Part shown: positions 27,724-61,070 of the stretch, in pieces
How the letters are laid out: each line of letters begins with the position of its first letter
Numbering within the stretch: the first letter of the stretch is position 1
Assembly: GCA_000320545.1 (NCBI GenBank)
Contig: ADNK01000413.1
Location: 1 to 64,000, forward strand
Source: Bigelowiella natans CCMP2755
Taxonomy: Eukaryota > Protista > Cercozoa
Direction of reading: 5' to 3'
Length of the DNA: 64,000 bases
The notes under the pieces: model-generated
What the model was told of the DNA's origin: nothing
Seen by the model: only the letters and a program-made list of their open reading frames with translations
The model's database searches: none
Position numbers and translations under genes: made by a program

Positions 27724-27833
27724 GAAGATGGCCAGGCACCCATGGCAACTTGAGAGGAAGACAGATGATGAAGAAATGAGATCCGCAGCCCGCCAAAATG
27801 TCATGTACGTTCTGCACTAGGAGCATTGATTTT

Positions 27834-40859: not shown

Positions 40860-41811
40860 AGCGTGTGTTGCGAGGGTGTGCATTAATTGTTGCCATTTGA
40901 TGTGCACGCTGTCATACAAACGTTGCATGGTGCATGGCATCAATCAGCATAGACGACAATAGCGAGAATTGTGCAATGAGCAGAAAGAGAGGTAATTATT
41001 GTGGCACTCAATGATGCTCGCTACGTGCACACGTTCAGCTACGCTAGTACGCCACGCGCACGCGCATGCACATCGATCATGGCGGCAATTCTATTTGTAT
41101 GCGCAGAACGTTAATTGCGTGCGTGCACATGCTAATGTGTACGTGGAATGCACCAACACGACCAATGATGCAATCGATGAATGCCGCGTGCGCGTTGTTG
41201 ACGCCGACAGCAGGGGCGGGCACGCTAGCTAACAAGCACCGGAGCCTTGCAAGAGCTAGACAGCATGACAGCTGCAAGAGAGACGGACACAATGATCAAT
41301 CAAATTGAATTTGTTCAATGACTGGTCATCCTCATGTAGCTGTGCAGCAATGCTAGAATGCAGCGGCTAAGCGATGATGACAGACACAGTGACATCACAC
41401 ATGCAGAACACAAGTCACATCACAAGTGATCAAGTGACATCATGCACATGGCGGAGGAGCACACATTGCATTCACATGTCCATCATTCAGCGCTGTTGAT
41501 GTCAAATCTGTTGGTCTTCGCTGTGATCGAGCGTGTGACATTTCATGCAACAATGTGTTGTGACGACCACAGCTGTGACGATGGGCAACAAGTGGGGCGG
41601 TGCTCAGTGAGCAGTCTAGCAGTGCTGCTCTGGCTAGCTAGCACTGCTGCAGATTGCTAGATTGCCTGTGCGTGGCTGTCACTTGTGGCCGCCAGCTGGA
41701 GCACTGCAGAGCGCCATGCCAGAGCGCATGCATGCTGCAGCTCGCGGACACGTGCATGCGCATGCACTAGCGCTAGCTAGGACAATCAGCCACATGGAAC
41801 GCGCGTGTGCT
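40860..41811. other. TpA-depleted decayed repeat-like DNA flanking the left TIR
   Basis: Few TA outside CTA/TAG; contains a copy of the short dispersed repeat at 41278-41368. Confidence 0.6.
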
Positions 41812-42169
41812 GCAGCAGACTGCTGCACCATGCCCCACATTTGATTTCCCATCTGCCGTCAGTGGGGGAATGACACAAAATTTTCATTTCAAAAATTCAC
41901 CCACTGACGACCCACTGCTGAACTGAATTGCTAGAATGACATGGCAAAATTGCACGAGCATGACACGTCAAGTGTTCTGCATTTGATTTCCCATCAGCAA
42001 TCAGTGGCAAAATGTGCGAAAATGCGCAACATGAAAGCTTCACCCACTGACGACCTGCTGCTGAACTGAATTGCTGTGATGACATGATGAAAATCACAGG
42101 CACATCCCATGTGTTTTGTGAAAACAATCTTTGTTGAAAATGACATGGCAAAATCCACAGCAGAGCATC
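41812..42169 (+). repeat. Left terminal inverted repeat (~358 bp, with two ~143-bp internal subrepeats)
   Basis: Reverse complement of 60271-60627 with about 26 differences by eye. catttgatttcccatc recurs at ~41838 and ~41980. Confidence 0.92.
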
Positions 42170-42209
42170 GTTGAAAACACTGCAAACTTGTTCTCACGCA
42201 AAGTGATGA

Positions 42210-42941
42210 ATGAGAACATTTGAATCAAAAAAAGGAAAACCATCAGATGAATGGCTGACTGAAAAACAATTTGAATCTTTGAAAAACAAAAGATTTTTGC
42301 ATGTGACATCATCAAACATGGACACACACAAAAGAAAACCCACTGAAGAACTTGTTGTCAAACTTGGGCAAGGTGAGGGAACTCAGCCAGCATCAAGATT
42401 GAAAGATTGCATTTCACATCATGGTTGCACTGACTCCAAAAGACCTTGGATGGGTTGCAAATTGCATTGTTTGTTCGCAACAGAAAAGAATGAAAATGTG
42501 GCAGCAACAAACTCCATGGTTCATGAATGTGAACTCAAATCAAAACAGCATGCTGAAAAAAACAACTTGTTGGTAGACAGAGGCGATGAAAGGACATTGA
42601 CAAGATCAAGTGAATTGATTGGAACATTGGATTGCAAACAATTTGAAAAACTCACAGACATTGAGTCAAAACCTGCATGCAATTTGCGAAATGAAAAGCA
42701 GAAATGCATCGTTGAAATGTCAGACCATGCAAACAAAGCAAAGAAAAATGACCATCAAAAACCTGCTACCTTCAAAGTGAAACACAGTGATGGCAGTGCA
42801 GAAGGAACAATTGGAAATGTGTCACCTAATGATGTCAAATCAAAGAATTTTGACAAGTCATTTAGAGAACATTGTGAAAAATCAAATGACAAAGACAACA
42901 TCAAATTAGAAGATGAACATGTGAAACACCTTGGCATTTGA
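42210..42941 (+). pseudogene. Hypermutated viral ORF, possible T5orf172/GIY-YIG-like nuclease domain
   Basis: FL(H=Y)V...VVKLGQG...PASRLKD(C=Y)...RGDE pattern; zero Tyr in 243 aa. Confidence 0.4.
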
Positions 42942-43133
42942 TCATCTACTGAAACATCATGCACAGCCCATTTTGCATCTTCATCAAAATCAAATGGTTT
43001 TTTCATGATTTGCAATTTGACAAACAAATCACCATTTTCTGTCATCAACAACTTGTCAATTTTTTGCAATTTGTTCATCCTTTCTTCTAATTTTTTTGAT
43101 CGTTTCTCTAATTCCATTGTTTTCAACAAACAT

Positions 43134-43337
43134 TCAATGAGATTTGTTGTCATTGATGACAACAACAAAAATCACTTGCTCACCACACTTTTCAGTTGCC
43201 ATCTCGTGTGCTTCTTTGAAAGTTTCACCTGACACAAGGTTCATTCTCATGGAAGCCATGTGTTTTTTGCCATGATGCTTGCCATGAGCTGCTAATGAAT
43301 CTTTCTGTCTTTTGGTTGATTTTTTTGATGCCATCAC
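43134..43337 (-). pseudogene. Small basic His-rich viral hypothetical protein
   Basis: TKRQKDSLAAHGKHHGKKHM...GETFKEAH resembles a small protein seen in aquatic viruses (recall, not searched). Confidence 0.4.
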
Positions 43338-43352
43338 ATCACTGTGGATTTT

Positions 43353-44084
43353 TCATTTTGACAAAGGAACATCGTGTTTGTCAACCATCTTTTTGTCAAT
43401 GTTGCGAGATGGTCCACCAAACAGAACAGAACACAGACGGGCTCTGCTCCAAGACTCGGCACTTTGATTTGGACGACTTCCTCCAGAACAGTGAGCTCCT
43501 TTGCCTTTGTTCACAATTTCTCTTGAAGATTTCAAAGGAACATCCAAAACTTCAGTCACATTGGATGAGGATGCATCACCTTTGAAACACTTGTCTGCTT
43601 TTTGTGTCCATTTGGATTTCTTGCTTTTGAAACTTCTCAACTTTGGTCTGTTTCTGCCATGAAAAATGCTCTCTGTTTGTTTTTCCCCATCTTTTTTGCT
43701 CAACGATTTGGGCACATGCTTCTCATTGATGCTCATCTCACATTTTTTAACAGCATCTTGAACTGCTTTGCTGTTCATCCATTCACATCCGGCATCTGAA
43801 CCCCACGAAAGCCAAGCCACAGCACCTCTTCTCTCATTTCTTTGTGATTGGTCCATCGGTTTGCCATCATTTTTCCATCTGTCGCATCCTGGTTTAGATG
43901 TGCATTTGTGACGAGCGAACCAAGCATTCACAACAATGACATCTTCAACATCCATGGCATCGTCATGTGCTAATTGTTCAGCTCTTTTCATTCCTGTTTC
44001 AATCGTGCCTTTCCAATTCAGCTTCTTTGATTTCAATGCTATTCGGGCTTTCTTCCTCACTTTCATTGGCATTTTCAATTTCAT
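43353..44084 (-). pseudogene. Hypermutated two-domain viral ORF: phage-like RA.QLA/AW..WG.D.G domain followed by a DUF5824-like giant-virus domain
   Basis: (H=Y)VPKSLSKKD, RPKLRSFKSKKS and KGKGA(HC=YY)SGGSRPNQSAESWSRARL; zero Tyr. Confidence 0.6.
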
Positions 44085-44653
44085 TGTTCAATTTGAGAAG
44101 ATTTTTTGCATGCTTTTCACAAAGAATGTGTTTGTCATGACATTTTTTGATCACAAATCCATCACAGAAGGGACAACACATTTTGAGAATGTGTTTGTCA
44201 CAATGTTTTTTGGTCACAAATCCATCACAGAAGGGACAATGTGTTTCATCGTGTTTCGTTTCATCTTCATGACAATCTCTCGCACAAGCATTGATGCAAT
44301 CTCCATCATCTGTTCCATGTTGTTTCATGTCTCTACCTGGAACATTTTCATTGACACATTTTCTTTTCATTTTTTCTTCAGCTGTTAGTTCTGCTTCTTT
44401 CTTTCTTTTCTGATGAACAGATATTTTTTTGGCATCCTTTTCCAATGACTTCAAAAGGTGAACCTTCAACATTTGATTCATTGCAAGTTCTGCCACCAAT
44501 CTTGACTAATCGGTTGGTGTTGATGTTGCATCCATGACCATTTTTCATCTCTTTGTTTTCAATTTTAGCAAAAAGCTTTTGCAAGTTCTTTTTTTGAAGA
44601 GAACTAAACTTTCTAAATTTTTTCAAAAAACTTTTCATTGTGTCATCAGACAC
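43999..44653 (-). pseudogene. Hypermutated, frameshifted viral ORF with two tandem CPFC..H zinc-finger-like repeats
   Basis: CPFCDGFV(T/I)KK..DKHI occurs twice; 63-bp-period direct repeat at 44123-44243. Confidence 0.5.
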
Positions 44654-45778
44654 ATCATCATCACAGATTAGATTTCTTCAAGTGAGAATTGAACGAATGA
44701 AAATTTGAAAAAAAACCACAGTTTTTTTGAGAGTTTTGAAACGACCACAAAATGGTTCAAAAAGAAAAAATCTGCAGCATCACAATGAGCGAAAATGTTG
44801 TTGGCGGAGCAACTCTAAATCCCAAAGGATTGAACAAAATGTTCAAATCCAAAACTTCAGGATGTGTGAAAGAATGCCACAAAAAGAACTCTCAAAAATG
44901 GCTACGAAAGGCAGAATGCAAAGCCTGCAATTGCATGATTGGATTAGCATCACTGTCTCGTCACAAAAGAACTGAAAAAAACACATGCTCAATGGTGATC
45001 CTAATCCATCCGAAGAGCAGAAAAAATTTGTAGATGATCATGAATGTGTCAAGTTCAGGAAATGCAAATTGGTCAAATTGGAAGAAAAATCAGATTTTGT
45101 CATGAAGAAATCAGAAGAGTTAGGAAACAAAACACAATGAATGCAATTTTGTGATCATCATGATTGCCATCATGATCACAAAATGACATCATGAACAAGT
45201 TGAACATTGACAGTTTTTGTTTCATGACCATTGATGTCATCATTGTGATTGTCAATGTCCTCAAATCCATCATGCCAAGATGGTCCACCACATTGTTCTT
45301 TTTCTTCAACATCTGGTTTAGCAAGACCAAGTTCAATCAATGTGTCTCCATTTTGTCCCTTGTGATTGTCAATGTTCTTCACAAATGCTTCTACAGTTTC
45401 ATCATCAACCTTTGGTTTTGTTGGAACTTTTTCATCCTTGTCATCATTGCTCATCACAACATGACTGTGCATTTCACAATGATTTCAAACGAACATTGAT
45501 CAAATGATGCTGTCATGCCATCAACTTTTTTAGGAACCTTTGGAATTTCTTTTTTCTTCTTTTCCTCCTCTTTCATTTTTGGTTTACGAACATCCTCAAA
45601 ATGTTTCTTGTTGTGTTCACTTGTCTTCTCTTTTTTTTCTTGACATCTCTTCTTTTGGTGTGCTGTCATTTTTTCTCTGTTTGGTTTGTGACATGCTTTT
45701 TGTTTTTCCTCATCAGACATTTGTCAAAACAGTTTGGATTTTTGCATTTGAAAAAAATGATCTCAACTCAATTGACAT

Positions 45779-47008
45779 GTGAGCAATTTGAGAGAAACAG
45801 AAAAAAGGTTCACACGACAGTGGAACAATTGTTTTCCATTGATGGAAGAAGATGGAAAAGGAAATGAAGTTCCAAGTGAAGTCAATGTTGATCATCTTCT
45901 TTGGATGATTTTCAATGAAGACTCCATTGGAGGTGACAGAAAACTTGTGGTGAGAAAAACTGACACTGCGGTGATTGGTCCAATGACAGAAACAAGAACA
46001 CATTTGTCGAACATGGAAAAGAATTCAATCACATGTGCCAATGACAACGGATTTGACATCAGTGATCCAACAGAAGATTCAAGAACACCACCAAGAGCAC
46101 AAACACCGCCAAAAATGACAAGAACACCAGCACCACCACCATCTAGAAATGGGTCAAGATCATCAACACCATCGCCAAGAGGACCAGCACCAAGAGGACC
46201 AGCACCAGGAGGACTAGCACCAGCACCAGCACCAGCACCAGCACCAGCACCAGCACCAGAAAACAGACAACAACAGATGGCACAAGAAGCAAAACTACCA
46301 GCATTAGCAAGATCATCTGGTCGTGATGTTCCAACACAAGCAACACCATCACAAAGATTTGACCAACAACCAGGTTTCAGTCCAACCCCAGTTGTTCCTG
46401 CAACGGCACCTGCTGGATTTGAATCAACACCAGATGACACAGGTGAGAAAAAATTGACAGATTCATCTTTGAAAGAAATGAAAGAACATGATGATTTTCA
46501 GAGACCGCTACCTGATGTTTCAGAAAGACAAAATGCAATCTGTCAGACCAAGATGAGGCAAGGATTGATCCAAGAAGCAACTCATCCATTCGGAGGTAAA
46601 CGTGATGTGACCAATGAATCACAAATCAATTGCAATGCTGATCATGAAAACCCATTCATCAAATCTCAAGCAAGATTGAAGGTGAAAGAAATGGATGACA
46701 CGAGCATCACACACAAACCTCAATTGCAAGAGGCCATTGATGATGCCAAACCATCTGCTAAATTGCCAGCAAAGATGGCCAATGTGAAAGCACTAAAAGT
46801 TGAAGTTCCAGTTGAACCTCCGTTCAAAGCAAGAGGTTTTGATCCAAAGGAATTGCGACCTGCATTTGAAATCAATTGCACTCACGGCATGGTGCCTCAT
46901 CACATGTCTCAAGCATGCAAAAAGAAGAAAGATGAAGTAGCAGATGTGCATGCTGCTCACATCAAATCAAAACAAATGAAAGATGCTTCTGATTTGTTTT
47001 TTCAATGA
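45779..47008 (+). pseudogene. Hypermutated viral ORF with Pro/Ala (GCACCA)n low-complexity linker, unknown function
   Basis: 409-aa ORF with zero Tyr and an APAPAPAP repeat at ~46215-46260. Confidence 0.5.
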
Positions 47009-47033
47009 AAATGACTCAAAGATGTGAACACAC

Positions 47034-47639
47034 ATGAACACAATGAAACATGTGCCAGATCATGCCAAAGGAAAAATTTGCAAACTGCACATGTCAGGAA
47101 ATGAAGATTCAATTTGTCATGGTTCTGCCATTCAAAGTTCAAGTGTGAGATCATCTGGTCATAGAAAAAATTTGAAATGTTGGAAAAAGGGTACAGGTTC
47201 ATTCATGACATCATTTGAATCATTGGAAAATGAAAATGCAATCACAACCCTTGTTGAAAATTTCCCTTGTGATTCTGAACATGAATTAGAAGCCAGAGAA
47301 CGATTTTGCATGGAAAACAACAAATGCATCAATGAAAATGCACCCACAAGAACTGCAAAAGAATGGAGAGAAACAAACAAAGAACGATCAAAACAATGCA
47401 GACAAGATGACAAAGAACGAATGGCAAAACCAAACAAAAAATGTCATGAAGATGACAAAGAATTGTCAAAGGAAAAAAGAAAAGAACACTTTGCGAATCA
47501 CAGAAAAAAGAACAAAGAAAAATTTGAAGAAAAAATCAAATGTCCCTTCTGTGGTTGTTCTGTTGGAAAATCCAATTTGAAAAGACATCAAAGAACCAAA
47601 AAATGTTCAAAAGCACAAGAAGAATTCAAACAAAAATGA
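47034..47639 (+). pseudogene. GIY-YIG endonuclease (NCLDV/PLV type) with C-terminal zinc finger, hypermutated
   Basis: GKI(C=Y)KL...I(CH=YY)GS...R..GH, LVENFPCDS..EL.ARERF(C=Y) and CPFCGCSVGKSNLKRHQRTKKC. Confidence 0.8.
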
Positions 47640-47665
47640 ATGTTTGAAATGATTGTCGTTTCATT

Positions 47666-48451
47666 GTGATTGTCATCATCCATTGCAATCACAATGTGAC
47701 CAATTCTGAAAAGGGCAAATGCAAAAAATTAGACATGAAACCAACAATGACAACCAAAAAAAAACAGATCCACAACAATTGCAACTTGACACCTTCGTTT
47801 CCAAACAGATGCTCATTCACAGCTCCAACAGGAAGTGGAAAATCAGTGGTGATGGCAAATTTGTCAACTCGTAAAAGACATTCAAGAAACTTCTTTGATG
47901 TTGTTTTGTTTCACTCTCCAAACGTTCACTTTGAAGACGAACGTGCAGAAACAAAGGCAAAAAATGAAAAAGCAGAAATGAAATTTGAAGAAAAGTTCAA
48001 AGAGAAAGAGTTTGGAGCCATGGTTCATGAAGTGATGCGAGAACAAAAAGAACTAAAAGACAAAAAGAAACACATGAAAAAAACATTGACAATCATTGAT
48101 GATTTCGCTTCAGATGAAAAAGTGATGAAAAGTGAAACATTGAAAGATTTGTTCTTTGCTGGTGGAAAATGTGGTGCATGTGTTTGGATCACCAGTCAGT
48201 GTTGCAAAATTGTTTCTCCTGATGTTCGCACAAATGCCGAACATTTGATTGTTTTTAGCAGACAACCTTCAACTGAATTGAAAAAGATGGCTGAAGAAAT
48301 GTCAACAGGCAAATGCACTGAGAAAAAAATTGTGGAAACACTTGATGAAATGTCTTCTGTGGATCATTCATTTCCACATTGCAATCGCAAGCAACCAATG
48401 AATGAAAGGTGCATGATCAATTTTCAAAGTTTCATGAACATCCAAACATGA
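47666..48451 (+). pseudogene. A32/FtsK-HerA-type viral genome-packaging ATPase, hypermutated
   Basis: Walker A APTGSGKS; Walker B TIIDD; LFFAGGK...WITSQ..KIVSPDVRTN motif region; zero Tyr in 261 aa. Confidence 0.85.
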
Positions 48452-48707
48452 TCAATGTGGATGAACTTTTGCCAGAATCACATTCAAAAAAATCAGGAAC
48501 AAATCATCATCATTTGACAGTCGTCCAAAAAAAAACAGCAAATCCTTTTTCACATTCAAAAAAATCAGCTGTCATGGTCCCAGCTGTCAAACCTGCTGGT
48601 TTTTTTGCGAGAGAATTTGTGAGAAAAGAAGTGCCTGTGAGCATCAAACGAACATTTGAAAGGTGTCAAATGTCAATTAATTGTCATCTAAACGTTGACA
48701 ATGACAC

Positions 48708-49271
48708 ATGGGAAATGACAATTCTTCACCACCAAAACCAAAACCAATCCACATTCCAAAGCCACATTTTCCAAAACCAAAACCAATGCATGTTCCAAGA
48801 ATTCCCACAGAAAAAGCAACTAAGCCTGTGAACAAAGGAACAAAAAAAGGAGCAAATCATCTTGAAGACAAACTGACACATCCAGTTGCTGCTGCAAATG
48901 AAGCTGAAGGAGCATTGAGTGAATTGGATTCTGTGTCTCACGGCAGTCTTGGTGTTGTGCATCAGGGATCTCAAGTTGTGTTTCCACAATTTGGATTGGC
49001 CGTCACATTGGCCACTGTAGCAGATGAAATGGCTCACAATGATGGTGAGTCATCAAAAAAAACATCAAAAAACATCTCATCAAATCAGGCTACAGGAGGT
49101 GTTTGTGGTGATTGTCAAAGTGTCAGAACCATTGAAAAATCAGAGCTTGTGACTGAAATGGAAAACAAATTCAATGCAGATTCACACGACTCACCAGATG
49201 TTGATGGAGCAATTCCAGTTTCTGTGGAAGGCAAAATTTCTGTTGATGATGCGACCAGAAAACTCAGATGA
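48708..49271 (+). pseudogene. Hypermutated viral ORF, unknown function (MGN start, PK repeats)
   Basis: 187-aa ORF preceded by TCTA at -21; zero Tyr. Confidence 0.5.
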
Positions 49272-49683
49272 ATCACTTTTTCTCATCTTCTTTGATTTCA
49301 GGACTTGGCAGAAATGTTCCAAGTGTCAGAATGACAACGTTTGAAAAAGCATTTCTTTCTGCTACATTTTTTGCTGTTGCAACTTGAAGCACACTGAATG
49401 TTGAAACACTGAACATTGCACCAGATTTCAGGAAAAACTCTGAAGCCCTTTTGTCAGAAGTTGAACAACAAGACTGGTGAGCATCAATGTGTTTTTCATC
49501 CTCTGATTCTTTTCTGTGTGGCATCTCTTCCATCATTCTGTCTTTGCATTCTTCAGAATCATTCATGTCTGCAACTTTTTGTTGTTTTTCATCTGCTTTG
49601 TGTTCGATGGATTGTGGAACAATCATTGCAAACAGTCACAAACAAAATGCCACAATGATTTTTTTTCTGTTCTTGTGATGACA

Positions 49684-50578
49684 ATGGGATCATTTGATGA
49701 GATGAAAGATGGATTCAAAAAGGCTGTTAATGATGTGCAAAAATCATCAGGGCATGCAACAAAGCAAATCAAAAAAGACTTCACAAAAGCAGGAGATGCT
49801 GTCAAAGATGTGTCTGTCATGGCAGGTGATGAAATCAAAAAAGGAGCCCATGAAGTTGGAGATCAACTGAAAAAACAAGAAGTCCAACAGGCACTCGCAG
49901 GGACTGGAATTGCTTTAGCTAATGTTGCTACTGGAGGGGCATTTGCTCCAGAATTAATGGCAGGTGGATTAGCAATTCAAGGTGCCATTGAGTCAGCACA
50001 TTCAAAATCTTTACCTCATGACACTGTGCTGCAGGCAGGAACCGCATGTGCCACTGGTGAATTAGATTTTAACAAAAGAGGACCAGGTGTTGGTTCATTT
50101 AGCGAAGGTATTTCTAATTTGAGAGAAGAAGGTGTGAAACGATTTGATGGTGTTGAAGATGAATTATCAGATGAAGCTATGAAAAGACATGATGATGTAA
50201 AAGGCAAAGCATCAGCAAGATTAGGATTTGATCCAACACAAATGCAATCTACAGATGAAGCTATGGATTCATTAAAAGCACAAATTGACAAAAATAGAAA
50301 TATTAGAGCAACAGCTAATGGATTTAAGAAGTGGAAAAGCATTAGAAAATTTAACAAACAAAGCAAAAAGTGAATTAAAAAAAGAAGTAAGTAGTCAAGG
50401 CAATAAAATACTAAATGATGTTTTAGGTAAAGTGTCTCAAAAGAAAAGCAAAGTGAAAAAAGCCATGAAAAAAGTTAAGAAGAAGATGAAATCTTCTAAA
50501 GGCAAAATGGCTGATGTCATTAAAAAGGTGAAACAAAATCAACAGAGATACAGAATGTCAAGTGGCATTGTGAATTAA
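49684..50578 (+). pseudogene. Viral ORF with Gly/Ala hydrophobic segment and basic C-terminus, probably frameshifted near 50290-50370
   Basis: MGSFDEMKDGFKK...ALAGTGIALANVATGGAF; the overlapping ORF 50285-50578 continues with K-rich sequence. Confidence 0.45.
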
Positions 50579-50646
50579 AAAAAAAACACATCATGAAAAA
50601 ATTACATTCGTTTTGATACAATTTTTTTCATCTACACATTGTTAAC

Positions 50647-52311
50647 ATGGATGCAATTAGTGAAACTACCGATGTTAGTAGATTTCCAGAAATCGACTAC
50701 AGTTTACCCCCTATGGATAAAATTTTCATTGATTCAGTCTCTCATTTTAGAGAAGAGATGAAAAATAGTAACAATGCTAAAAAAGCGAATACCAAAATGA
50801 GATTTTTTGTTCCAGCTCAACAAAGAGCAGTAGACCCATCTGAATTACATTTTCAATTAAATGTTGCTGCCAGAACAGCTGGAGATGCTGATTTACCAGC
50901 GGTTGACCAATTAAGATTAAGACTTGCTGAAGGTGGAGTTCATTCTCTCTTTAGAGAGATGATCATTAGAGATGGTAGAGGTAACATCATTGAAAAAATT
51001 AACAACTATGACCTTGTTACTAAAATTTTACAAGATACTTTGTTGACTAAAGAAGTTAAAAATAATTTGTTAAATGTGGAAGGTGTTCATGATGACCAAG
51101 GATTGTTCAACACAGTTCATAGCAAATTTGATATTACTGGTAACACCTTAGAATTAAAAGCACCTGTGGCTCAGGTCGTAGCTGATACTCTTCCAGCAGG
51201 TGCGGCTGATTTTCCCGCAGCCAATGCTGCTCCTGTTGCTGCTGTGACCACTCCCGCTTCACCATCAAGAGTACTTGGTGTAGGAACTCAATTCTTAACT
51301 GAACTAAGACCAGGTTCTGTTGTTAAATTCAATGGAAACAGTTACACAGTTGCCCATGTTGTATCTGACACAGAATTTGTATCTGCTACTAACATTGCTG
51401 CTGATGTTGCTGCTGCTAACATTGTTGCTGGTAGAGATTTTGTTGAAGGATTACTTGAAACAGAAAGTCGTTACAAAAAATTCCATCACGATGGACTTTT
51501 TACAGCAGATGGAGCTGTTCATTGCTTTCAGCCATGCTGCTCTGGGTTTTCATCTCAAAACAAATACCTTCATCTTGATCATTGTGGTGGGTTAGAATTT
51601 GAATTTACTTTAGATAGCAATGCCATGATTTTCGATGATGCTAATGCAGCAGGTAATGCCAATATTTTCATTAAACAAGGATATGTTCATCACACTGCTC
51701 TTGAATTTTCACCAGTTGTTGAAGCTGCTCTTGCTAAAGCATATGTGAGAGGTTTATCTATGAGTTTCCCTGTGTACCATGTAGTTAGTGGAACACAAAA
51801 TGCTTCTACCTCTGTTTCTCAGGAATATCAAGAAAGTTTAGCAATTCTTGAAATGGTTAAAATTGTTAGTAGACCAACTGGGTTTGATGCAAATGCTGGA
51901 GCATCATTTTTCTTTGAAGATCTAACCAGTGCTAAAAGAATTTACTGGGAGATCAACAAACAAAGATTTACTGAGTGTGGCAATGATGACATTTTACCTC
52001 AAGTTGTTTTTGTGAACAACAGAATCGGTAAAAATCTATTAGGAGATTACAAACATGCTACAATTTCTTATGGAGAATTCAAAGAAGCAGGTAAATCTGC
52101 TTTAATTTTCAATGCGCAAAACTACAAAGAAGGTAATTACACAGGAGTTAACACCAACCGAGCAACTATGAGACTTAAAATTGAAGGAGGAGATGGTGTT
52201 GGTTCTTTACAACCTGGTATTGCTAATCAAGGTAGACAAATCGATGTGTTAATGATGCACGAGCAATACATTATGTTAAAAGATGGAGAAAGTGTGACAG
52301 TTCGTAGCTAA
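50647..52311 (+). CDS. Major capsid protein (PLV double jelly-roll type) with internal insertion
   Basis: MRFFVP...VDPSELHFQLNV and GGVHSLFREMIIRDGRGNIIEKINNYDLV match the N-terminal PLV MCP pattern; 554 aa; lies directly upstream of the penton-like gene. Confidence 0.78.
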   Translation: MDAISETTDVSRFPEIDYSLPPMDKIFIDSVSHFREEMKNSNNAKKANTKMRFFVPAQQRAVDPSELHFQLNVAARTAGDADLPAVDQLRLRLAEGGVHSLFREMIIRDGRGNIIEKINNYDLVTKILQDTLLTKEVKNNLLNVEGVHDDQGLFNTVHSKFDITGNTLELKAPVAQVVADTLPAGAADFPAANAAPVAAVTTPASPSRVLGVGTQFLTELRPGSVVKFNGNSYTVAHVVSDTEFVSATNIAADVAAANIVAGRDFVEGLLETESRYKKFHHDGLFTADGAVHCFQPCCSGFSSQNKYLHLDHCGGLEFEFTLDSNAMIFDDANAAGNANIFIKQGYVHHTALEFSPVVEAALAKAYVRGLSMSFPVYHVVSGTQNASTSVSQEYQESLAILEMVKIVSRPTGFDANAGASFFFEDLTSAKRIYWEINKQRFTECGNDDILPQVVFVNNRIGKNLLGDYKHATISYGEFKEAGKSALIFNAQNYKEGNYTGVNTNRATMRLKIEGGDGVGSLQPGIANQGRQIDVLMMHEQYIMLKDGESVTVRS

Positions 52312-52428
52312 TTTCATTTTTCTATCAATCATTCCAATCCTTTGGGATTTGGAGTTGCTTCGCCAACATTTGTTGTTAAATTCCACCAAAATTTATATCA
52401 TGAAAATTTATTTCTAATATAAATTAAT

Positions 52429-53145
52429 ATGAAACAACACAAAATTTATTTTAATAGCAAAGATAGAATTACTGGAACAACCAATAATTTAAATTATCAA
52501 TTAAATAGTGTAATTGATAATGTATCTTCTATTTCTATTACAAGAGCAAGATTTCCAATTACTTGTTACAATGTGTCAGCTAAAAATAACATTTTAGAAA
52601 TTGAGAATAGTTCTGGAAACAAAACAAGTATGGAATTAACAAAACAAAATTATGGTGCTACTGAATTAGCAACAGAATTACAAACTAAACTTTCAACTAA
52701 TGCCTCAACAGTAGGAACTTTTACTCCTGTGCACAATGCTAAAACAGGAAAATTTAGCACAGGTTGTAGTAATAGTTTCAAAATAATTAAAAACGAATGC
52801 TCTAAATTTTTAGGTTATAATGACACTACACCTCTTTCTACATTGCATGTAGCAGATAATATGAGTAATCTATCACCAAAACCTGTTTACATTCAAACTG
52901 ATTTACAACTGGATACAGAATTAGCAGGTCAATTGTCAAGTGTTGTGCATGAAGTCTCTGGCGATGTGTCTTTTGGTAGTATCTCATATGATAATGAGAA
53001 ACCAAGTGAAAGGATTGAATTAATGAAAAAAAAGAATGTAAGCAACTTAAAATTTACACTTGTAGATGGTAATGGAGATGAAATAGAAAATAATGGTACA
53101 GATCATTCTATGATGGTATCTTTGTTTTGTCAGACTAAGGAATAA
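52429..53145 (+). CDS. Minor capsid (penton-like) protein
   Basis: IYFNSKDRITGT..L...IDNVSSISI..ARFP...YNV...NN, NY...ELA.ELQ and LKFTLVDGNG..IENNG.D.S match PLV/virophage penton patterns. Confidence 0.75.
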   Translation: MKQHKIYFNSKDRITGTTNNLNYQLNSVIDNVSSISITRARFPITCYNVSAKNNILEIENSSGNKTSMELTKQNYGATELATELQTKLSTNASTVGTFTPVHNAKTGKFSTGCSNSFKIIKNECSKFLGYNDTTPLSTLHVADNMSNLSPKPVYIQTDLQLDTELAGQLSSVVHEVSGDVSFGSISYDNEKPSERIELMKKKNVSNLKFTLVDGNGDEIENNGTDHSMMVSLFCQTKE

Positions 53146-53175
53146 GAAAAAAATATCTAATCATTATTAATAAAA

Positions 53176-54738
53176 ATGAGTGTTAGTATTACAGGTGAAA
53201 ACATCCCTAACCCTAATGTATCTGGTGGAACAAACAATGATAACAATTCTTCAGCAGGAGGCATAGTTGGGATTACAAGCAATTCGAATGACATTAATTT
53301 TGATGAAGGAGTTTCTGTGAATGGCATAAAATTTCAAAACACAGGAAACCAAAACGGACTTTTTATGGGTGTTGATTTGTCTGGTAATTCGTCTATGGAA
53401 ATGGTCTCTCCAACAACCTACATTGATTTTGTACATCAATTAGGTTCTGATTATACGAATCGTGTTCTGTCAAAAAATGACGGTATTCACTTCACAGGGG
53501 ATTTACACATGGGCATTATTAGACCTAATTATGTATCTTCAAGTACAATAACATCTACGAATGGAACTTTTAATGCTATTAATTTAGACGGTGTCCCTTT
53601 GAATCCAAGAAATTGTTTAGTTCACGGGATTACATCTGACATTGTAAGTGGAAACATGAAATTTACTATGAATTCTAATTTTCAAGAAAAATTAACAACA
53701 TTAGGCGATTATGATCTGTCAAACAAAATAACAAATGATGCTACAAATGGTTTGATTGTTAATGCTAATAATGTTAATGATGCAAGTGTTTTATCAACCA
53801 AAGTATCAAAATTTTCTTCATCTGTATCAGGAAAAGAACCAAAAATATTAAGTATTGACAATGATTTACAATTAGCTAATCATTCAGGTACACCTCAAAT
53901 GCGATTCAAAGATAACAGTGGCAATGTTCAAATTTCATGTAATGAATTAGAGTTAACAGATAATGTAGGGGAGGTAAAATTAAAGATCTTAGAAAAAATA
54001 AATAATGTAGAAACAAAAACAACAACAACAGAAAACAAACTTAATCCAATTACTTCATCTAACAACGAACATCAATTTTCAAGTTCCATTTTTGTAAATG
54101 GTTTGAGAAGCACAACACAACCTCATATCGATGGTATTCATTTAGGAAAAGATGTTCATAATGGTAGTAGCATTGAATTCGTTAGTCCAACATGTTACAT
54201 TGATTTCGTTCATAACAATTCAGGGACAGATTATGCGAATCGTATTTTATCCAATAATGATGGAATTCACATCACAGGGGATTTGCATGTTTTCAATACA
54301 AAAATTGCTGGAGATGTTACATTTCAAGGTTCATTGTTATCGAACACATTGACAGATTTAACAAATGGATTAAATGCAATTGAAGCATTAGCTATGAGCA
54401 ATAGCAACAATGTTCAAAATGGATTTAGCAATGTAAATGTCCCTATTGTAAGAGTCATTAATAATTCATCTACTGTTGTTTTCTTTGAAAGTGGTAATCA
54501 GCCACCTTTTTACAATCCTCGTGTAGAAAATGGTAAATCTACCGTTTTAGAACATGCTTCAAATGTTGTGTCATTAAATGTTCGTTCATCATCTCCATCA
54601 TGTAATTCATTTAATCTCACAGCAGACAAAGCAGTTAGCATAAATTCTGGTTCTGATCCTAATATGCCAACTGGGGCACAACATAGAATCGAATTGAATG
54701 GTCTGAATTTTGTAACCTTTACAATTTTCAATCCATAA
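53176..54738 (+). CDS. Asn/Ser/Gly-rich putative virion fibre protein with a duplicated ~50-aa module
   Basis: SSMEMVSPTTYIDFVH...DYTNRVLSKNDGIHFTGDLH is repeated as SSIEFVSPTCYIDFVH...DYANRILSNNDGIHITGDLH. Confidence 0.6.
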   Translation: MSVSITGENIPNPNVSGGTNNDNNSSAGGIVGITSNSNDINFDEGVSVNGIKFQNTGNQNGLFMGVDLSGNSSMEMVSPTTYIDFVHQLGSDYTNRVLSKNDGIHFTGDLHMGIIRPNYVSSSTITSTNGTFNAINLDGVPLNPRNCLVHGITSDIVSGNMKFTMNSNFQEKLTTLGDYDLSNKITNDATNGLIVNANNVNDASVLSTKVSKFSSSVSGKEPKILSIDNDLQLANHSGTPQMRFKDNSGNVQISCNELELTDNVGEVKLKILEKINNVETKTTTTENKLNPITSSNNEHQFSSSIFVNGLRSTTQPHIDGIHLGKDVHNGSSIEFVSPTCYIDFVHNNSGTDYANRILSNNDGIHITGDLHVFNTKIAGDVTFQGSLLSNTLTDLTNGLNAIEALAMSNSNNVQNGFSNVNVPIVRVINNSSTVVFFESGNQPPFYNPRVENGKSTVLEHASNVVSLNVRSSSPSCNSFNLTADKAVSINSGSDPNMPTGAQHRIELNGLNFVTFTIFNP

Positions 54739-54782
54739 TTCGTTTAGAATGAAAAAAAAATACATAGTCATATTGTAATCAT

Positions 54783-55163
54783 GTGGATAATGTTAGTAAT
54801 GTTAGAGAAACTTTAAAAGGTTATAGAGTTACACAATTGAAAGAATTGTGTCGTGAAGTAGGAACATCTCAATGTGCCAGAAACAAAAAAACTTTAATGG
54901 ATAGATTGACACCTATAGTTCTAAAAAGTGCTGGATATGAAGTCGTTTCTATTGAAAAAGAAGAAGAGGTAAAAAAACCAGCTAAAAAAATCAAAAGAGT
55001 TCCAGTTAAAAATAGTGTTAAAAAGAAAGAAGAGGAAAAAGTAGAGGAAGAAAAAATTAGTCTTGAATCAAAAGAAGATAGTAATGATGAAAAAGTAAGC
55101 ATAGAAATAGAAGAAGATGGTAATGATGAAAGTTCAGTAACAGAATCAGATGTAGAAAATTAA
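54783..55163 (+). CDS. Small SAP-like motif protein with acidic tail
   Basis: YRVTQLKELCREVG...NKKTLMDRL resembles SAP/HeH DNA-binding motifs. Confidence 0.45.
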   Translation: MDNVSNVRETLKGYRVTQLKELCREVGTSQCARNKKTLMDRLTPIVLKSAGYEVVSIEKEEEVKKPAKKIKRVPVKNSVKKKEEEKVEEEKISLESKEDSNDEKVSIEIEEDGNDESSVTESDVEN

Positions 55164-55355
55164 CTCTGTTCATGTAATGGGAGGAACAATAATTGTTTTA
55201 TTAACTTTAGGTGCATGTGTGATGATTGGACACATATTTGGTAGAGTGTCGGCATCAATTACTGATTTAGACCCTACTAACGATTATTTGATTGTGAATT
55301 AAAAAATTATTTTTTTGAAATTTTGTTTATAAAAATTATCTAAATCTTTATAACT

Positions 55356-55964
55356 ATGAGTTCTTCTACCGCACATTTCCGTAATTCAGTTTTAATTGAT
55401 GGATTACTTACCGGTCCTACCATTGTTAGAATAGACACCGAAAAAACTGCTGTTCTCAGCAGTCTTAATCAACAAATTTCTGACTTTCAAACAGCAGAAA
55501 CAAACAATGCTCAAGCAAGAGCAGATTTGCAAAATCAAATTGATGATGCTAATGCTTCTATGACTCAGGCTATGGGTGATTTAACCCAACTTGTTAATGA
55601 CAACAAAGCAGACATTGAAGGTAAATTAGCAACAGAAACTAATGAAAGACTTTCATTAGCAAGTGAAGTAAGCAACAGAAATGCATTTGTAGATGGTGAA
55701 ATTACCAGACTTGACCAACAACATGCTGATGATGATGCTAGACTTGCAGCTGTTGAAGCAACACAAGCTACTTTTAATTCAGATGTGGAATCTAAAATTC
55801 AAGAGAGAATTGATGCTCACAATGCTGATCTTGATAATACCCTTCCTCGTTTAGCAAAATTAGAAGAGTGTTTAGAAACAGATGAATCTGATCCTGCTAA
55901 TCCAGTCGTAAGAATTAAAGGAGGTGTTAAATTTGAAGTAAGTGGTGATTTCGTCCAAGGTTAG
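55356..55964 (+). CDS. Coiled-coil putative virion fibre protein
   Basis: Heptad-like Q/D/A-rich helix; C-terminus VRIKGGVKFEVSGDFVQG; TCTA at -17. Confidence 0.55.
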   Translation: MSSSTAHFRNSVLIDGLLTGPTIVRIDTEKTAVLSSLNQQISDFQTAETNNAQARADLQNQIDDANASMTQAMGDLTQLVNDNKADIEGKLATETNERLSLASEVSNRNAFVDGEITRLDQQHADDDARLAAVEATQATFNSDVESKIQERIDAHNADLDNTLPRLAKLEECLETDESDPANPVVRIKGGVKFEVSGDFVQG

Positions 55965-56011
55965 ATTGCAAATGTGATTTAAACAACATATAAAAAATCT
56001 AACAATTAATA

Positions 56012-56258
56012 ATGATGTCTAATATTAAAAGGTGGTGGTGCTTTTTTCAAAGAAACACCTGCAATAGCAAACAATGTAGTAGGTCAAACAATAGATACTA
56101 TTAATCAACAATTAAACGATAATAATACACAAAACACAGAAAATAAATTACAACTTGATTTTTCAAAAGAAGTTTTTATAATAGACAAAGAAAACAAAAC
56201 TATTACGATAAATCCTGAATGTAAACTCATTGTGCCTAATGATTTAATTCAAGGATAG
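56012..56258 (+). pseudogene. Short paralog of the preceding ORF, frameshifted after the start (not in the ORF track)
   Basis: The frame reads KGGGAFFKETP...TITINPECKLIVPNDLIQG*, ending like ...SGDFVQG*. The ATG is out of frame across an A-run. Confidence 0.45.
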
Positions 56259-56297
56259 TTCGTTTAAAAATAGTATAGTTTTTTGTAGTCATAAGTA

Positions 56298-56490
56298 ATG
56301 ACTATAAGAAAAGTGTATTTTTATGGATTAACATGTTTAAATACAAGAGAAACATATATAGGTTCTACTACTATGGATCCAAAATTAAGATTACAAATGC
56401 ATGTCGCTAATTTTAGAGCACATGAAAAAGGTTTTGGTAATTTTTGCTCTTCGTATCAAATTTTAAAAAGAGATAATTATATGTTTAAAG
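56298..56490 (+). pseudogene. N-terminal half of a GIY-YIG endonuclease, truncated
   Basis: VYFYGL...TYIGSTT...RLQMH...CSSYQIL, followed by an abrupt switch to helicase sequence. Confidence 0.7.
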
Positions 56491-57744
56491 TTAAACAACG
56501 AATGTAAATACATAAGAAAATTTGATATTTCACCACATGATGTTATATGCTTTGATGAGGTTTATATATATTCACTACATCAACTATCAAAAATTAAGTT
56601 ATTTATGGATAAGCATGTTGATAAAAAATTTATTGCTACTGGTGATTTAGCTCAATTGGATCCCATTGAAAACGAATATCTGTTTAACAACATCAAAGAC
56701 CTTGATGTTAGAACAACTGAAGCTATGAATGATATGTTCCCTAATCAAATCACTCTTAAAATCTGTAAGAGAGTAAAAACAGACGAGGAAAGAAATACTC
56801 TTGCACGATTAAAACAAGAAATATTTGATGTAAAAACTAAACCATTTGATGTGCTAAAAAAATATTTTAAAGTTGTTGAAAGTATGGATAAAGTAAAGAC
56901 TCTTAACAATATTACCTTCTACAACTTTAGATCCCGTTCAGTAGGTAAGTATATCCACGGTCTACAATAGAAACCGAGAAAAAAAGTTTATGTAGATGGT
57001 ATTTGCTACTATGCTGGTATGGAGATTGTGTGTAAAAAATATAATAAGAAACCAAAACTATATGTGAACTATGCTTATGAAATTGTTAAAGTAAGTAAAA
57101 AAGAATTTGTAATACAGGATGTATGTGATATGGAAGAAATAAGAATTCCTATAGAATTAATTAGTAAGCATTTTAGATTATCATATGCCTCTACCTGTCA
57201 TAGTTTCCAAGGATTATCAGTAGATGGCCCTATCACCGTATTCGATACTAACACCTGTAGAATTAATCGCAAGTGGCTCTGGACTGCTATAACTCGTTCA
57301 ACTGACCTATCACAGATACAAATATATCAGCACAGCGATAAAGAATGCTACAGATTAAAAGAAAGTATGATTTCTCAAAAACTACGAATGAAAGTATCTT
57401 CATATGAATCTCAGGACAAAAGAGCTGGTAGAACTTGGAAAGATAAAGAACATATTGATGAGGAATGGATAAAAAGAACTGTTAATAATCATCCACAATG
57501 TCCTGTGTGTAGATGTGGATTTACTGCTGATAATGTTTCTGTGGATAGAATTGATAATGCTCAACCTCATCTGTGGAATAATTGTAGATTGACTTGTGTG
57601 GAATGTAATCTTAGTAGAAATAATCAACAGACTTACCCAGCATTTGGTGAGTACACCCCTCAGGATGTTGAGTTTGAAGATGGCTTTGAGGATCAATGGG
57701 TGAAACCTGGGTACGAAAACACCATCACTGGGCTGGAGCTTTGA
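56491..57744 (+). pseudogene. C-terminal fragment of an SF1 helicase plus HNH-like domain (PLV replication protein), with in-frame stop at 56968-56970
   Basis: VICFDEVY (Walker B), ATGDLAQLDPI, YASTCHSFQG, WTAITRS, then CPVC...VDRIDNAQPH..NNCRLTCVECN. Walker A is absent. Confidence 0.78.
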
Positions 57745-57991
57745 GGCATCGTGTGCCCCGAAAATTTGACATTTAATGTCTTTGCCACATCAGCCACACG
57801 TGTCAGTTCTTCACCGGAGACTCTCCCCGCTGCTGGGCATTCCGGGATGAAAATGGGAGTCCCTAATCTTCGGACACTAACGGACACTAACGGGCAATAC
57901 CGGTAATACTCCCGGTAATGCTCTTTCCGGGGATTCGCCGCAACGAGAGTCTCCCGTGAAGATCTTCACTCCAGACTCGAAATCAGACTCG

Positions 57992-60183
57992 ATGAAGCGT
58001 AGTGGATCTTTTGACGAGAAAAGGAAGGTAGATGAAAGAATCCCTAGCAGGAGAAGTTCGAAAGCACAGGTACTTATCCTACGAGGCTTGCGTTCGGGAG
58101 CTTAAGCTTTGATGTGTTCTCAGCGTTCTGAGGTATGGGGAAATCAGATGGACTCTATTAGCAAACAAATCGAGAAATTGAGGGATGAAAGAAAAGCTTT
58201 GAGCATCGCTTGGGCAACGGAGAAGAATAAGGAGAAAGAAGAGGCGCTCAAGGGTGCTATTGACAAATTGGACGAGGAAATTCAGGCGAAGGAGGCAGAA
58301 CTGAAGGAAACGATAAAGAAATTCGAGGAGGCAACCCAAGGTTATGAATTCTGTTAACATCTGAGGAAACAATCGGTGTGCTGAGATATTTTTGCGTGTG
58401 TGTTCAGCCATGGAAATTGAGGAAAGCGGCAGGGGGGGTGATGCCCAATGTCTCTGTGCAAATAATCCATTGTTCTAATTTTATTGTGATTTGATTTCAG
58501 GGGAGAAACGCAAAAGCATATCGGATTACGAACGAGGAAGCGAAACAAAAGGTGACTAGACTCATCCTCTCTAAGTATCTGTTTGATAGTCCCGCTTTAC
58601 GTGGATACACAGGCAAACGATTCAAGATTGACACGGATGCCGAAGAATTTTTCCAAGCTTTGAGAGACACTCCGTTCACAAAAGGGACTGCAATGCAGCT
58701 GGTGCGCATAACGAAGAACATCCTCGTACCTGGGCATCGTGCTAGTTGGATTCGGGGGTCCAGGCACCCTGTTACTCTTTTCTACCGCAAGGCATTTTCA
58801 GAAGCAGTACGCAGATTTCGAGAATGTTATCAACTTCGCCGTGAGGGAAAGTCGAGCATTGATTGCTGTATACTCTCTGGGCAAAGTGGTATAGCCAAGA
58901 GTGTGGCCTTTTTGCTAACGTACATCAAGGTGGCGCTTAAAAATGACGAGAAGGTTGCGTTCTATTCCGTGCCAGAGGGTATCCTTTACTGCATCTACGT
59001 CGAGAACGGTACAGTCAAGTGTTCAACATCTGTAGTTACCCCCTTAACATTCCACAGTGAAGAATGGAAAAGCTTTGACTCTACTTCGACACACCTTGTC
59101 GTCGATCCCGAGAACGGATTCGGGCACCTAAATGTCAACATCACAAAAGCCTTTGTGGTAGTGGCAAGCTCGCCCAATAAGGAGTGGAAGCAATTCGAGA
59201 AACTCCTTAAGGCCGGAACGAAGAAGCGGGATCTCACCTTGTATGCGGATGTCATCCAAGAAGATGAATTCAACGATATTTCTGCGGGAAACAATGAGAG
59301 TGGCGGGGCGGATGGAAACTGTACTGTCAAGGGCTTAAAAAGCCGATCCGAGATAGCCGGGGGGATGTTGCGGCACATTGTGGACGAGCAAAAGTTCAAG
59401 AAGTTTCAAGACTCCCAAGACCACATGTTGCGAATGTTTCAGGGCAAGATTGGCGAAAACGTGGAGATGATACAACCTAGGGATGTCGCTTTACCAAGTT
59501 CCGTGTTCTGCATCCGCCCCATTCTTAAAGACGGTTCGCACACTAGTTCGGATTTTGTCCTGGATTTCCTGAGCCCTTATGTAGAATCCAGAGTGGTAGG
59601 GGCGCTTGCCGAGGAACAGTCTAAGCAGAGTGAAAGTATGTCTGGTTTAGAGGCAGAAAGAAGGTGGTTTCACCTCATAAAGAATGGGGGAAATTTTGAA
59701 GGCCGACATGTCGGCTCACATTTGCCAGAAGAATTGAAAGGCAAGACTATCACTGTCTCATTTAGTCGACACAAACGAGTGATTCACCATCGCGAAAATA
59801 GTAAGGAAGAAAAGAATAAGTGCTTGGAGGAAATCCGCGAATTGAAGGATTCGAGCACGCTGGTCATTTGCCCTCCGAACTACACAAACATAGATGGTGC
59901 TTCAAGTGCTGAGGTGCTGCATCAGATGGCTAAAGGAAATGTTCACGACTTTAAAGTCAAACACAAAGACGAGGTTCTTGTGGATACGAAAGTTGTCACG
60001 ATTTACTACTACACTTTGGAGAAGCATTATCATACATTCCGTGTGAATTTCGTTTACAAAGACGTGTCAAAATCTGACCAGGAAGCGTGGAAGAAAACCT
60101 GGCACAAGCACTTGAGGTTCGTAGTCGTAAAACTCGATCCGGTAAGATTTTGGGATAAATTAAAGAAAGCACTTGGAAAATGA
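57992..60183 (+). CDS. Crinkler/RHS-like effector gene (N-terminal coiled coil, P-loop NTPase, REase-like C-terminus), spliced, inside the TIRs
   Basis: ILSGQSGIAKSVAFLLTY, LVVDP, VVVASSP, GGMLRH and PPNYTNIDG...HQM...H motifs; GT-AG intron 58070-58123 joins in phase. The splice path into 58501 is not fully resolved. Confidence 0.6.
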
Positions 60184-60270
60184 AAGCGAAATCCGAAAGG
60201 TTAAAGCGATCATTAGCGATGAGTGAGGCGCACACTACTGTGGCTAGAATTCAAGATGTAGCGATGACGT

Positions 60271-60627
60271 GATGCTCTGCTGTGGAATTTGCTATGTCAT
60301 TTTTAACAAAGATTGTTTTCACAAAACACATGGGATGTGCCCGTGATTTTCATCATGTCATTCTAGCAATTCAGTTCAGTAGTAGGTCGTCAGTAGGCAA
60401 ATTTTCATGTTGCGCATTTTCGCAATTTTTGCTACTGATTGCTGATGGGAAATCAAATGTGGGTCACTTGACATGTCATGCTCGTGCAATTTTGCCATGT
60501 CATTCTAGCAATTCAGTTCAGCAGTAGGTCGTCAGTAGGTGAATTTTTGAAATGAAAATTTTGTGTCATTCCCCCACTGACGGCAGATGGGAAATCAAAT
60601 GTGGGGCATGGTGTAGTAGTCTGCTGC
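60271..60627 (-). repeat. Right terminal inverted repeat
   Basis: Reverse complement of 41812-42169; retains more TpA than the left copy. Confidence 0.92.
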
Positions 60628-61070
60628 GCACACGATGCATGACGTGAGCAGCTTGTCTAGCACATGGCCACGGCGACCAGGCTAGCTAGCTAGGCCTGCG
60701 CATGTGCTGCGCATGCGCAGCGCATGCACGCCGCACGCAGCGTAGCCGCCATGCTGCGCACGCTAGCACACGTGCTACGCACTGCTGCTCCAGCTGGCCA
60801 GTGCTGTTGGACTGCACATGTGCATTGCTAGATTGTGACGGACCATTGAAAAAAGTGACAGATCATTTCATTGCATCCGTCTCGCTACCATCTCGCACTG
60901 ATGAAACTTCATTGCTGCTAGCTCTAGTTAGCTAGGGCTAGCTAGTCAGCAGCACGTGCAGCAGCTGCTGTTGCGATCGTGCACATCTTGCGAGAGCGCA
61001 GCTCATTCTCATTGGTGCAACAAACTAGCAATCAAAAACATGTGTCTGCAACATGCTGCATTGCTTTTGC
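60628..61070. other. TpA-depleted, CTAG-rich flank to the right of the element
   Basis: gctagctagctag runs; virtually all TA in CTA/TAG context. Confidence 0.6.

Follow-up and report, generated by a model that had tools for sequence, protein, structure and literature searches.

An endogenous Polinton-like virus of the PLV-Bnat family in Bigelowiella natans: a copy with an inverted middle and an unevenly distributed load of TpA mutations

The window analysed here, i.e. the whole 64-kb stretch of Bigelowiella natans DNA (contig ADNK01000413.1), contains an endogenous Polinton-like virus (PLV) at positions 41812..60627 (18.8 kb), bounded by terminal inverted repeats (TIRs) and carrying virion genes, the two ends of a polymerase-helicase gene and a spliced gene of host-like composition. 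The left TIR (41812..42169, + strand, 358 bp, with internal repeats of ~142 bp) and the right TIR (60271..60627, − strand) pair over two arms, 41812-42036/60403-60627 with 95% and 42043-42169/60271-60397 with 92% identity; aligned as a single repeat, they differ in 26 of 358 columns (93% alike), a resemblance far beyond chance. Because contigs of other copies leave the element at 41812 into unlike flanks (3 contigs in X1, 4 in X12), this position is a terminus of the family, and the TIRs are the ends of the element rather than independent copies of a host repeat, an eventuality raised in the earlier note on this DNA. That note, made from the sequence alone, had proposed an endogenous PLV with a morphogenesis module and TIRs, which is supported by the TIRs, the major capsid protein (MCP), the penton and the A32-type ATPase. 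TIRs and a size of 15-25 kb are features of Polinton-like viruses (Yutin 2015; Krupovic 2016). The GC content is 35% in the viral part and 45% in host DNA, and the neighbouring host genes are eukaryotic (dynein heavy chain, casein kinase 1 and Skp1, recognized by eye; RPL26, recognized by Pfam). Both flanks (41250-41811 and 60628-61000) are hypermutated, and the left flank occurs in multiple copies, 6-11 contigs showing indels there; apparently, the virus lies within another repeat that has decayed. Polintons/Mavericks are marked by an RVE integrase and a target-site duplication of 6 bp; no exact duplication was found in the flanks, which are themselves mutated at TpA.

The MCP gene (50647..52311, +) encodes 554 amino acids (aa). 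Its sequence has no match in Pfam, in PHROG (beyond an insertion at residues ~155-272, window ~51110-51460) or among PDB sequences (searched with two profiles). A profile search among 1.84 billion representatives gave 252 proteins at E ≤ 0.001, many of them matching the inserted domain alone, and the alignment used for folding comprised 27 sequences, namely 22 full-length-looking matches among those listed and 5 close sequences. In the resulting model (predicted local distance difference test, pLDDT, 79) the protein is a double jelly roll with a β-barrel insertion. The top PDB structure matches in Foldseek are the Sputnik, iridovirus, faustovirus and PBCV-1 capsids (E < 1e-11), at 8-10% identity, so that families are not ranked thereby; in a wide structure search, ranks 1-16 are all jelly-roll virion proteins, the best being the PBCV-1 capsid (Z 26.4, root-mean-square deviation 3.1, 350 aligned residues). 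The fold predicted for the ORF (open reading frame) at 50647 thus agrees with the capsid role first assigned to it. The insertion weakly resembles phage tail domains (Z about 6), and its barrel is common to repeats of large PKD-domain proteins and phage tail proteins. The B. natans copies of the MCP also carry ~25-30 extra Ala/Pro-rich residues that are missing from metagenomic relatives. A Pfam scan of 47 distant relatives gave no match to a capsid or polymerase family.

Directly after the MCP comes the putative penton, or minor capsid, gene (52429..53145, +, 238 aa; DUF5901 with E 2e-4), as the earlier note had it; a PDB sequence search gave nothing meaningful, and a single jelly roll is assigned through identity to PLV-Bnat26_10, annotated as a minor capsid protein. 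The packaging ATPase of A32 type (47696/47735..48451, +) was also correctly recognized, although the window copy is degenerate: its relatives (56-76% identity, including a B. natans gene model at 76%) match Pox_A32 (PF04665) with E 1e-12 to 4e-14, whereas the window copy no longer does. Where the relatives start, the first codon is GTG, and the conserved GRK reads GGK; the start and the Arg were lost because of the TpA hypermutation described below. Two further ORFs, at 53176..54738 (+, 520 aa, Asn-rich, with an internal repeat) and at 55356..55964 (+, a 202-aa coiled-coil protein), have no Pfam or PDB match of weight, the PDB search on the fibre likewise giving nothing meaningful, and their role as fibres is a guess. 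Viral-core expression reaches a depth of at most 0.33 per strand in 6% of one short-read RNA run, which is too thin for calling silence.

The element is a further copy of the PLV-Bnat family, because its MCP, penton and HNH region are ~89-96% identical to those of PLV-Bnat26. Compared by eye, the MCP shows 12 differences from PLV-Bnat26_9 in its first 158 residues (~92% identity), the penton 25 in 238 from PLV-Bnat26_10 (~89%) and the HNH region 3 in 77 (~96%). Among the six close MCP relatives, two are gene models of B. natans (83-84%); the other four are metagenomic proteins (64-67%). The family was first described among the ‘transpovirons’ of B. natans (Blanc 2015; BnTV13/26/87) and, according to passages of the paper of Krupovic, Yutin and Koonin (2016; PMC5499653), was reclassified there as PLV-Bnat, with elements that end in inverted repeats and with three of them (13, 26 and 87) in the trees. 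On sequence identity, placement of the present copy beside Bnat13/26/87 in MCP, ATPase and helicase trees is near certain. The shared features are the ATPase (269 aa in Table S1 of PMC5499653 for PLV-Bnat26), the GIY-YIG gene (205 aa), a hypothetical protein of 243 aa, the Tlr1-like superfamily 1 (SF1) helicase-HNH gene (1268 aa) and the TIRs, and no protease or integrase is listed there. The sizes of the window genes agree with that table. However, this copy is identical to none of the three published sequences with which it was compared (PLV-Bnat26 and the models from scaffolds 13 and 87, the latter two at 83-84%), and it has a 12-kb inversion, a deleted pDNAP-like domain and a degenerate ATPase. 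Whereas transpovirons are defined by the lack of virion structural genes, MCP, penton and ATPase are all present here, with the combination found in PLVs: a double jelly-roll MCP, a minor capsid gene after it, an A32-like ATPase and the ends of a Tlr1-like helicase/HNH gene. The fold search does not separate the MCP from that of virophages (Lavidaviridae), and it is sequence identity that points to PLV-Bnat. In contrast to the stand-alone protein-primed PolB of Polintons/Mavericks, the pDNAP-like domain of this family is fused to the SF1 helicase.

Two genes of the element are split. The 5′ part of the GIY-YIG gene lies at 56298..56493 (+; ORF 56295, Pfam GIY-YIG with E 8e-5) and its 3′ part, with Cys-rich repeats, at 43999..44445 (−). 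The Tlr1-like polymerase-helicase gene has a 5′ stump at 44446..44638 (−), covering codons 1 to ~65-67 (positions 44638-44438 are 54% identical to residues 1-67 of the relative P0022, tblastn E 7e-15), and a 3′ remnant at 56494..57744 (+), covering residues ~860 to the end, i.e. the SF1 helicase from Walker B on and the HNH domain, with an in-frame stop at 56968. Full-length relatives of the remnant have 1205-1321 aa, and two of them, P0021 and P0022, map to the window as two pieces on opposite strands. In other copies, opposite-strand joints (44437/56461, 44445/56492 and 44446/56493; three contigs, each of 3/3 DNA runs) restore a whole GIY-YIG gene; other copies likewise continue beyond the polymerase stump at 44448 (3 contigs in X11) and, upstream of 56494, beyond the helicase remnant (2-3 contigs per run). 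The split mapping and these joints therefore show that sister copies have the other order, and that the 12-kb block 44446..56493 is inverted in this copy, with the loss of ~800 codons and hence of the polymerase-like domain. Passages of PMC5499653 describe the lost domain of the Tlr1-like SF1 helicase as an inactivated pDNAP, and pDNAP-like motifs are visible by eye in the relatives. The earlier statement that no polymerase is recognizable thus holds for the domain itself, which is gone, but the absence is a deletion lesion: both gene ends remain and the family has a pDNAP-helicase. P0022, the MCP relative P0004 and the ATPase relative P0013 each come from a contig of 10,688 bp, which suggests that they belong to one element. 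Read from 44752 through the block into 44445-42210, the order of genes would fit the numbering of Bnat26 (ATPase 5, MCP 9, penton 10, GIY-YIG 13, 243-aa gene 14). Three distant loci align with the helicase at 28-33%; one of them (L003, IMG/VR, 18,085 bp) contains an ATPase, a capsid-like ORF of 403 aa and a Pol-helicase of 1219 aa that shares 28% identity with P0021. Locus scans with the MCP in viral and metagenome contigs, and with the ATPase, the helicase piece and the Crinkler-like ORF introduced below in viral contigs, gave no related loci.

The element is unevenly depleted in TpA. The observed/expected (o/e) ratio of this dinucleotide is 0.07 in a saturated zone (41812..49900), 0.73 in 50601-57750 and 0.66 in host DNA, with CpA/TpG ratios of 1.77, 1.32 and 1.14, respectively. 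The depletion reaches ~600 bp into the left flank, and TpA climbs to a plateau at ~49800-50200. Tyr is absent from all nine ORFs counted between 42210 and 50373, as well as from ORF 55356 in the right half. When conserved Tyr are defined as the alignment columns with Tyr in all metagenomic relatives, the ATPase keeps 0/6 (five are His or Cys, one is Phe) and the polymerase stump 0/3, the MCP 11/15 and the helicase 14/16; two B. natans paralogues of the MCP (P0002 and P0003) keep 0/14. The left TIR retains one TpA and the right TIR 12, and in 10 of the 13 isolated differences between them the right TIR has TpA where the left has CpA/TpG, the reverse occurring in none. The split genes bear on the timing. 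The 5′ half of the GIY-YIG gene has 25 TpA in 196 nt (o/e 0.91) and its 3′ half 4 in 447 nt (o/e 0.09), while the polymerase-helicase stump has 4 in 193 nt (o/e 0.18) and the 3′ remnant 124 in 1251 nt (o/e 0.87). Because the halves of one gene differ in load according to their present position, mutation likely came after the inversion, and it covers a contiguous zone that includes the ~600 bp of left flank. The surviving TpA are concentrated in CTA/TAG: 47/55 in the saturated zone versus 187/511 in the core (Fisher p 3e-12) and 481/1241 in host DNA, with 11/11 and 15/15 in the two flanks.

According to parts of the work of Mettrop et al. (10.64898/2026.01.13.699255), TpA hypermutation of viral inserts has been measured in mutation-accumulation lines of B. 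natans, on one NCLDV (nucleocytoplasmic large DNA virus) and one virophage insert; 231 de novo TpA mutations (Table S2) and 124 clusters were reported, and among the latter the window locus may be found. The present pattern bears the signature of that process, with T/A to C/G transitions at TpA, a gain of CpA and TpG and clustering over foreign DNA. It goes beyond the main text of that paper, which lacks the words ‘trinucleotide’, ‘context’, ‘spreading’, ‘flank’ and ‘Polinton’, in the boundary inside one element, the resistant CTA/TAG context and the spared gene. As side observations, the lightly mutated core (50601-57750) avoids CTAG (o/e 0.05) and CpG (0.40), CTAG being the most retained TpA context in the flanks; and 27800-29000 is a second TpA-depleted, CpA/TpG-rich island (o/e 0.28, 20/22 surviving TpA in CTA/TAG), which resembles the left flank (41273-41376; 74% over 107 nt) and is probably another hypermutated repeat.

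The spared gene lies between the helicase remnant and the right TIR. It is Crinkler/RHS-like (58112..60183, +), with predicted exons 58112-58340, 58501-58551 and 58613-60183, two GT-AG introns, a 616-aa open frame and a host-like GC content of 46%. One X15 contig departs from the window sequence at 58552 and carries the beginning of exon 3. It has no Pfam match; the nearest named language-model clusters (ESM Atlas) are Crinkler (0.98) and RHS (0.94), and the product is predicted to be a Crinkler/RHS-type nuclease. By eye it has what we take to be P-loop and restriction endonuclease (REase)-like motifs. TpA depletion is absent, without CpA/TpG excess (1.08) or CTA/TAG bias (44/105). Poly(A) tails, seen as poly-T loose ends, occur in 41 RNA reads at 42114, the mirror of 60326, with a poly(A) site in the right TIR serving transcripts from this copy or a sister. 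At 58258, 31/31 RNA reads differ from the window, and another copy or strain is therefore the source of at least part of the Crinkler-like RNA. Neither the text passages on PLV-Bnat in PMC5499653 nor its supplement names such a gene, and literature searches gave no report of a Crinkler gene in a PLV. Like the Crinkler (CRN)/RHS proteins described in parts of PMC5289972, with an NTPase and a C-terminal REase, it has CRN and RHS as language-model neighbours; unlike them, it belongs to a free-living alga, has a short coiled-coil N-terminus, a GIAKS P-loop and no Pfam match, and stands in a PLV-helicase/TIR setting. Nematode Mavericks with cargo genes, as presented in part of 10.1101/2022.07.12.499685, offer a parallel as virus-like TIR elements holding host-type genes, but transfer between species is not seen here. 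The SF1 helicase-HNH remnant, the 5′ stump at 44638, this gene and the TpA depletion were absent from the earlier list of features, which otherwise largely stands.

Taken together, it is highly probable that the locus holds a defective PLV-Bnat copy in which the middle 12 kb were inverted relative to the sisters, the polymerase-like domain was lost and the left half was then, likely, saturated at TpA in place by the host. The intact virus would be ~21 kb long, with linear DNA packaged by the A32 ATPase into a jelly-roll capsid, and would replicate by means of the Tlr1-like helicase with its inactive pDNAP domain, the polymerase being borrowed from the host or a giant virus. A single break-and-rejoin event would have cut the GIY-YIG and helicase genes. 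A host mutator would then have hit a contiguous chromosomal domain at ~41.2-50 kb, with a weaker effect as far as 57.7 kb, and once more the right TIR and its flank, striking TpA outside CTA/TAG first and sparing the intron-bearing Crinkler/RHS-like gene. No functional helicase can come from this copy, nor, probably, a functional ATPase; to move, it would have to rely on proteins supplied by another one. Several points weigh against this account. Among the pieces listed, none bridges this copy's own two junctions, which leaves room for an assembly artefact; TpA rises steeply at 49.8-50.2 kb (within ~600 bp, from 1 to 14 per 200 nt), which could reflect crossing-over between copies; and a first MCP model, from 7 close sequences, had a pLDDT of 37. 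In addition, Blanc 2015 reportedly listed four such elements, and the polymerase-less copy may be the fourth of them.

An unlikely alternative, within the same family, is that the half-and-half pattern of TpA arose by recombination or gene conversion between old, saturated copies and young, lightly mutated ones. The steep transition falls inside a single ORF (49678), copies of very different load do exist (P0002 and P0003, as above), and the right arm looks recently amplified (a 482-nt contig with 6 differences at depth 97 versus 12-18 for exact-match viral contigs, X1). However, each zone spans one inversion junction (44445/6 and 56493/4), both from the same GIY-YIG break, and because of this, neither zone can be derived in a single tract from donors in the ancestral order; moreover, the left flank is part of the depleted zone. 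Somewhat less probable still is that the TIRs belong, together with the Crinkler/RHS-like gene, to a distinct family of host TIR transposons, which captured or recombined with a viral core. The TIR (41933-42565) has ~10× the summed contig depth of the viral core (657 in the TIR bin in X1, 119-234 in Crinkler-like bins, 14-86 in viral bins) and several variant ends; one form joins the TIR directly to 58308 (X15); and both the GC content of 46% and the introns are host-like. Against this, inverted repeats terminate the published PLV-Bnat elements, the left TIR directly adjoins a viral ORF, and the helicase end followed by this gene recurs at a second B. natans locus (P0027, a gene model on another scaffold, 82% identical and with the same splice pattern). 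The excess TIR depth also fits non-autonomous derivatives, of which many likely exist, and summed depth is no copy number. An undescribed PLV lineage, as the earlier note had concluded, or a virophage can be dismissed as very improbable, since the proteins are ~90% identical to published PLV-Bnat26 proteins, despite an MCP without database sequence matches, a top Foldseek row held by the Sputnik MCP (with the low identities given above) and only 11 virophage-type MCP matches for B. natans in the supplement rows of Bellas 2023.

The preferred account, a defective copy mutated in place, thus involves a virus family and a host process that were both known already, and the rearranged copy places constraints on the way in which this process targets DNA. 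PLV-Bnat has been in print since 2015-2016, and the usefulness of this copy lies in its anatomy. For the newly reported TpA hypermutation in B. natans, its enzyme and its targeting rule, the copy offers two testable constraints, namely that mutation load tracks present position across split genes and that CTA/TAG sites resist, CTAG most, with the spared host-like gene within the same TIRs as an internal control. The copy further explains how the family escaped MCP surveys and makes clear that public metagenome assemblies contain unmutated relatives (the metagenomic proteins mentioned above). Fungal repeat-induced point mutation (RIP) represents a comparable process in which dinucleotide-specific transitions kill repeats and leak into flanks. 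The direction here is the opposite, RIP creating TpA, and the multi-copy Crinkler-like gene is spared, so repeat status alone seems insufficient. ADAR prefers UAG, and the avoidance of CTA/TAG is the opposite of that preference. A wider proposal, doubtful for the present, is that PLV-Bnat and its many TIR derivatives carry and spread a spliced, polyadenylated host Crinkler/RHS nuclease-toxin as stable cargo, and that the TpA mutator works through a chromatin-domain process, bounded but spreading, by which transcribed cargo is left intact and CTA/TAG is avoided; the inverted copy would then date the mutation and show targeting by position and not by gene or repeat status.

The remaining ORFs lie mostly in the saturated zone. 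The DUF5824 protein announced earlier (43353..44084, −) was confirmed by Pfam (E 4.4e-10) and, with 243 aa, is as long as PLV-Bnat26_14. The claim of two or three GIY-YIG nucleases stands for ORF 56295; the ORF at 47034..47639 (+), with a C2H2 finger and no Tyr left, aligns only weakly with it (E 9e-6 over 39 aa), and the 243-aa ORF at 42210..42941 (+), also without Tyr, is a possible member of the GIY-YIG superfamily with no database match, Pfam included. Its motif is presumably T5orf172-like. No integrase or maturation protease was matched among 109 six-frame ORFs of at least 55 aa (in 17 cases the scan started at the ATG or used a near-full form), in agreement with the earlier note; hypermutation can erode such matches, the ATPase having lost its own. 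A 72-aa ORF (43134-43352, −) has no Pfam match, and we take it to resemble a small protein, rich in His and Lys, found in PLVs and giant viruses. The small Cys/His protein at 44752..45033 (+), divergent from the helicase start, is likely the Zn-ribbon gene of the family, judging from the arrangement described in passages of PMC5499653. In the host DNA of the window, a 1242-aa ORF (23995-27723, +) ends in ~60 degenerate 15-bp repeats encoding Glu, Lys and Ala.

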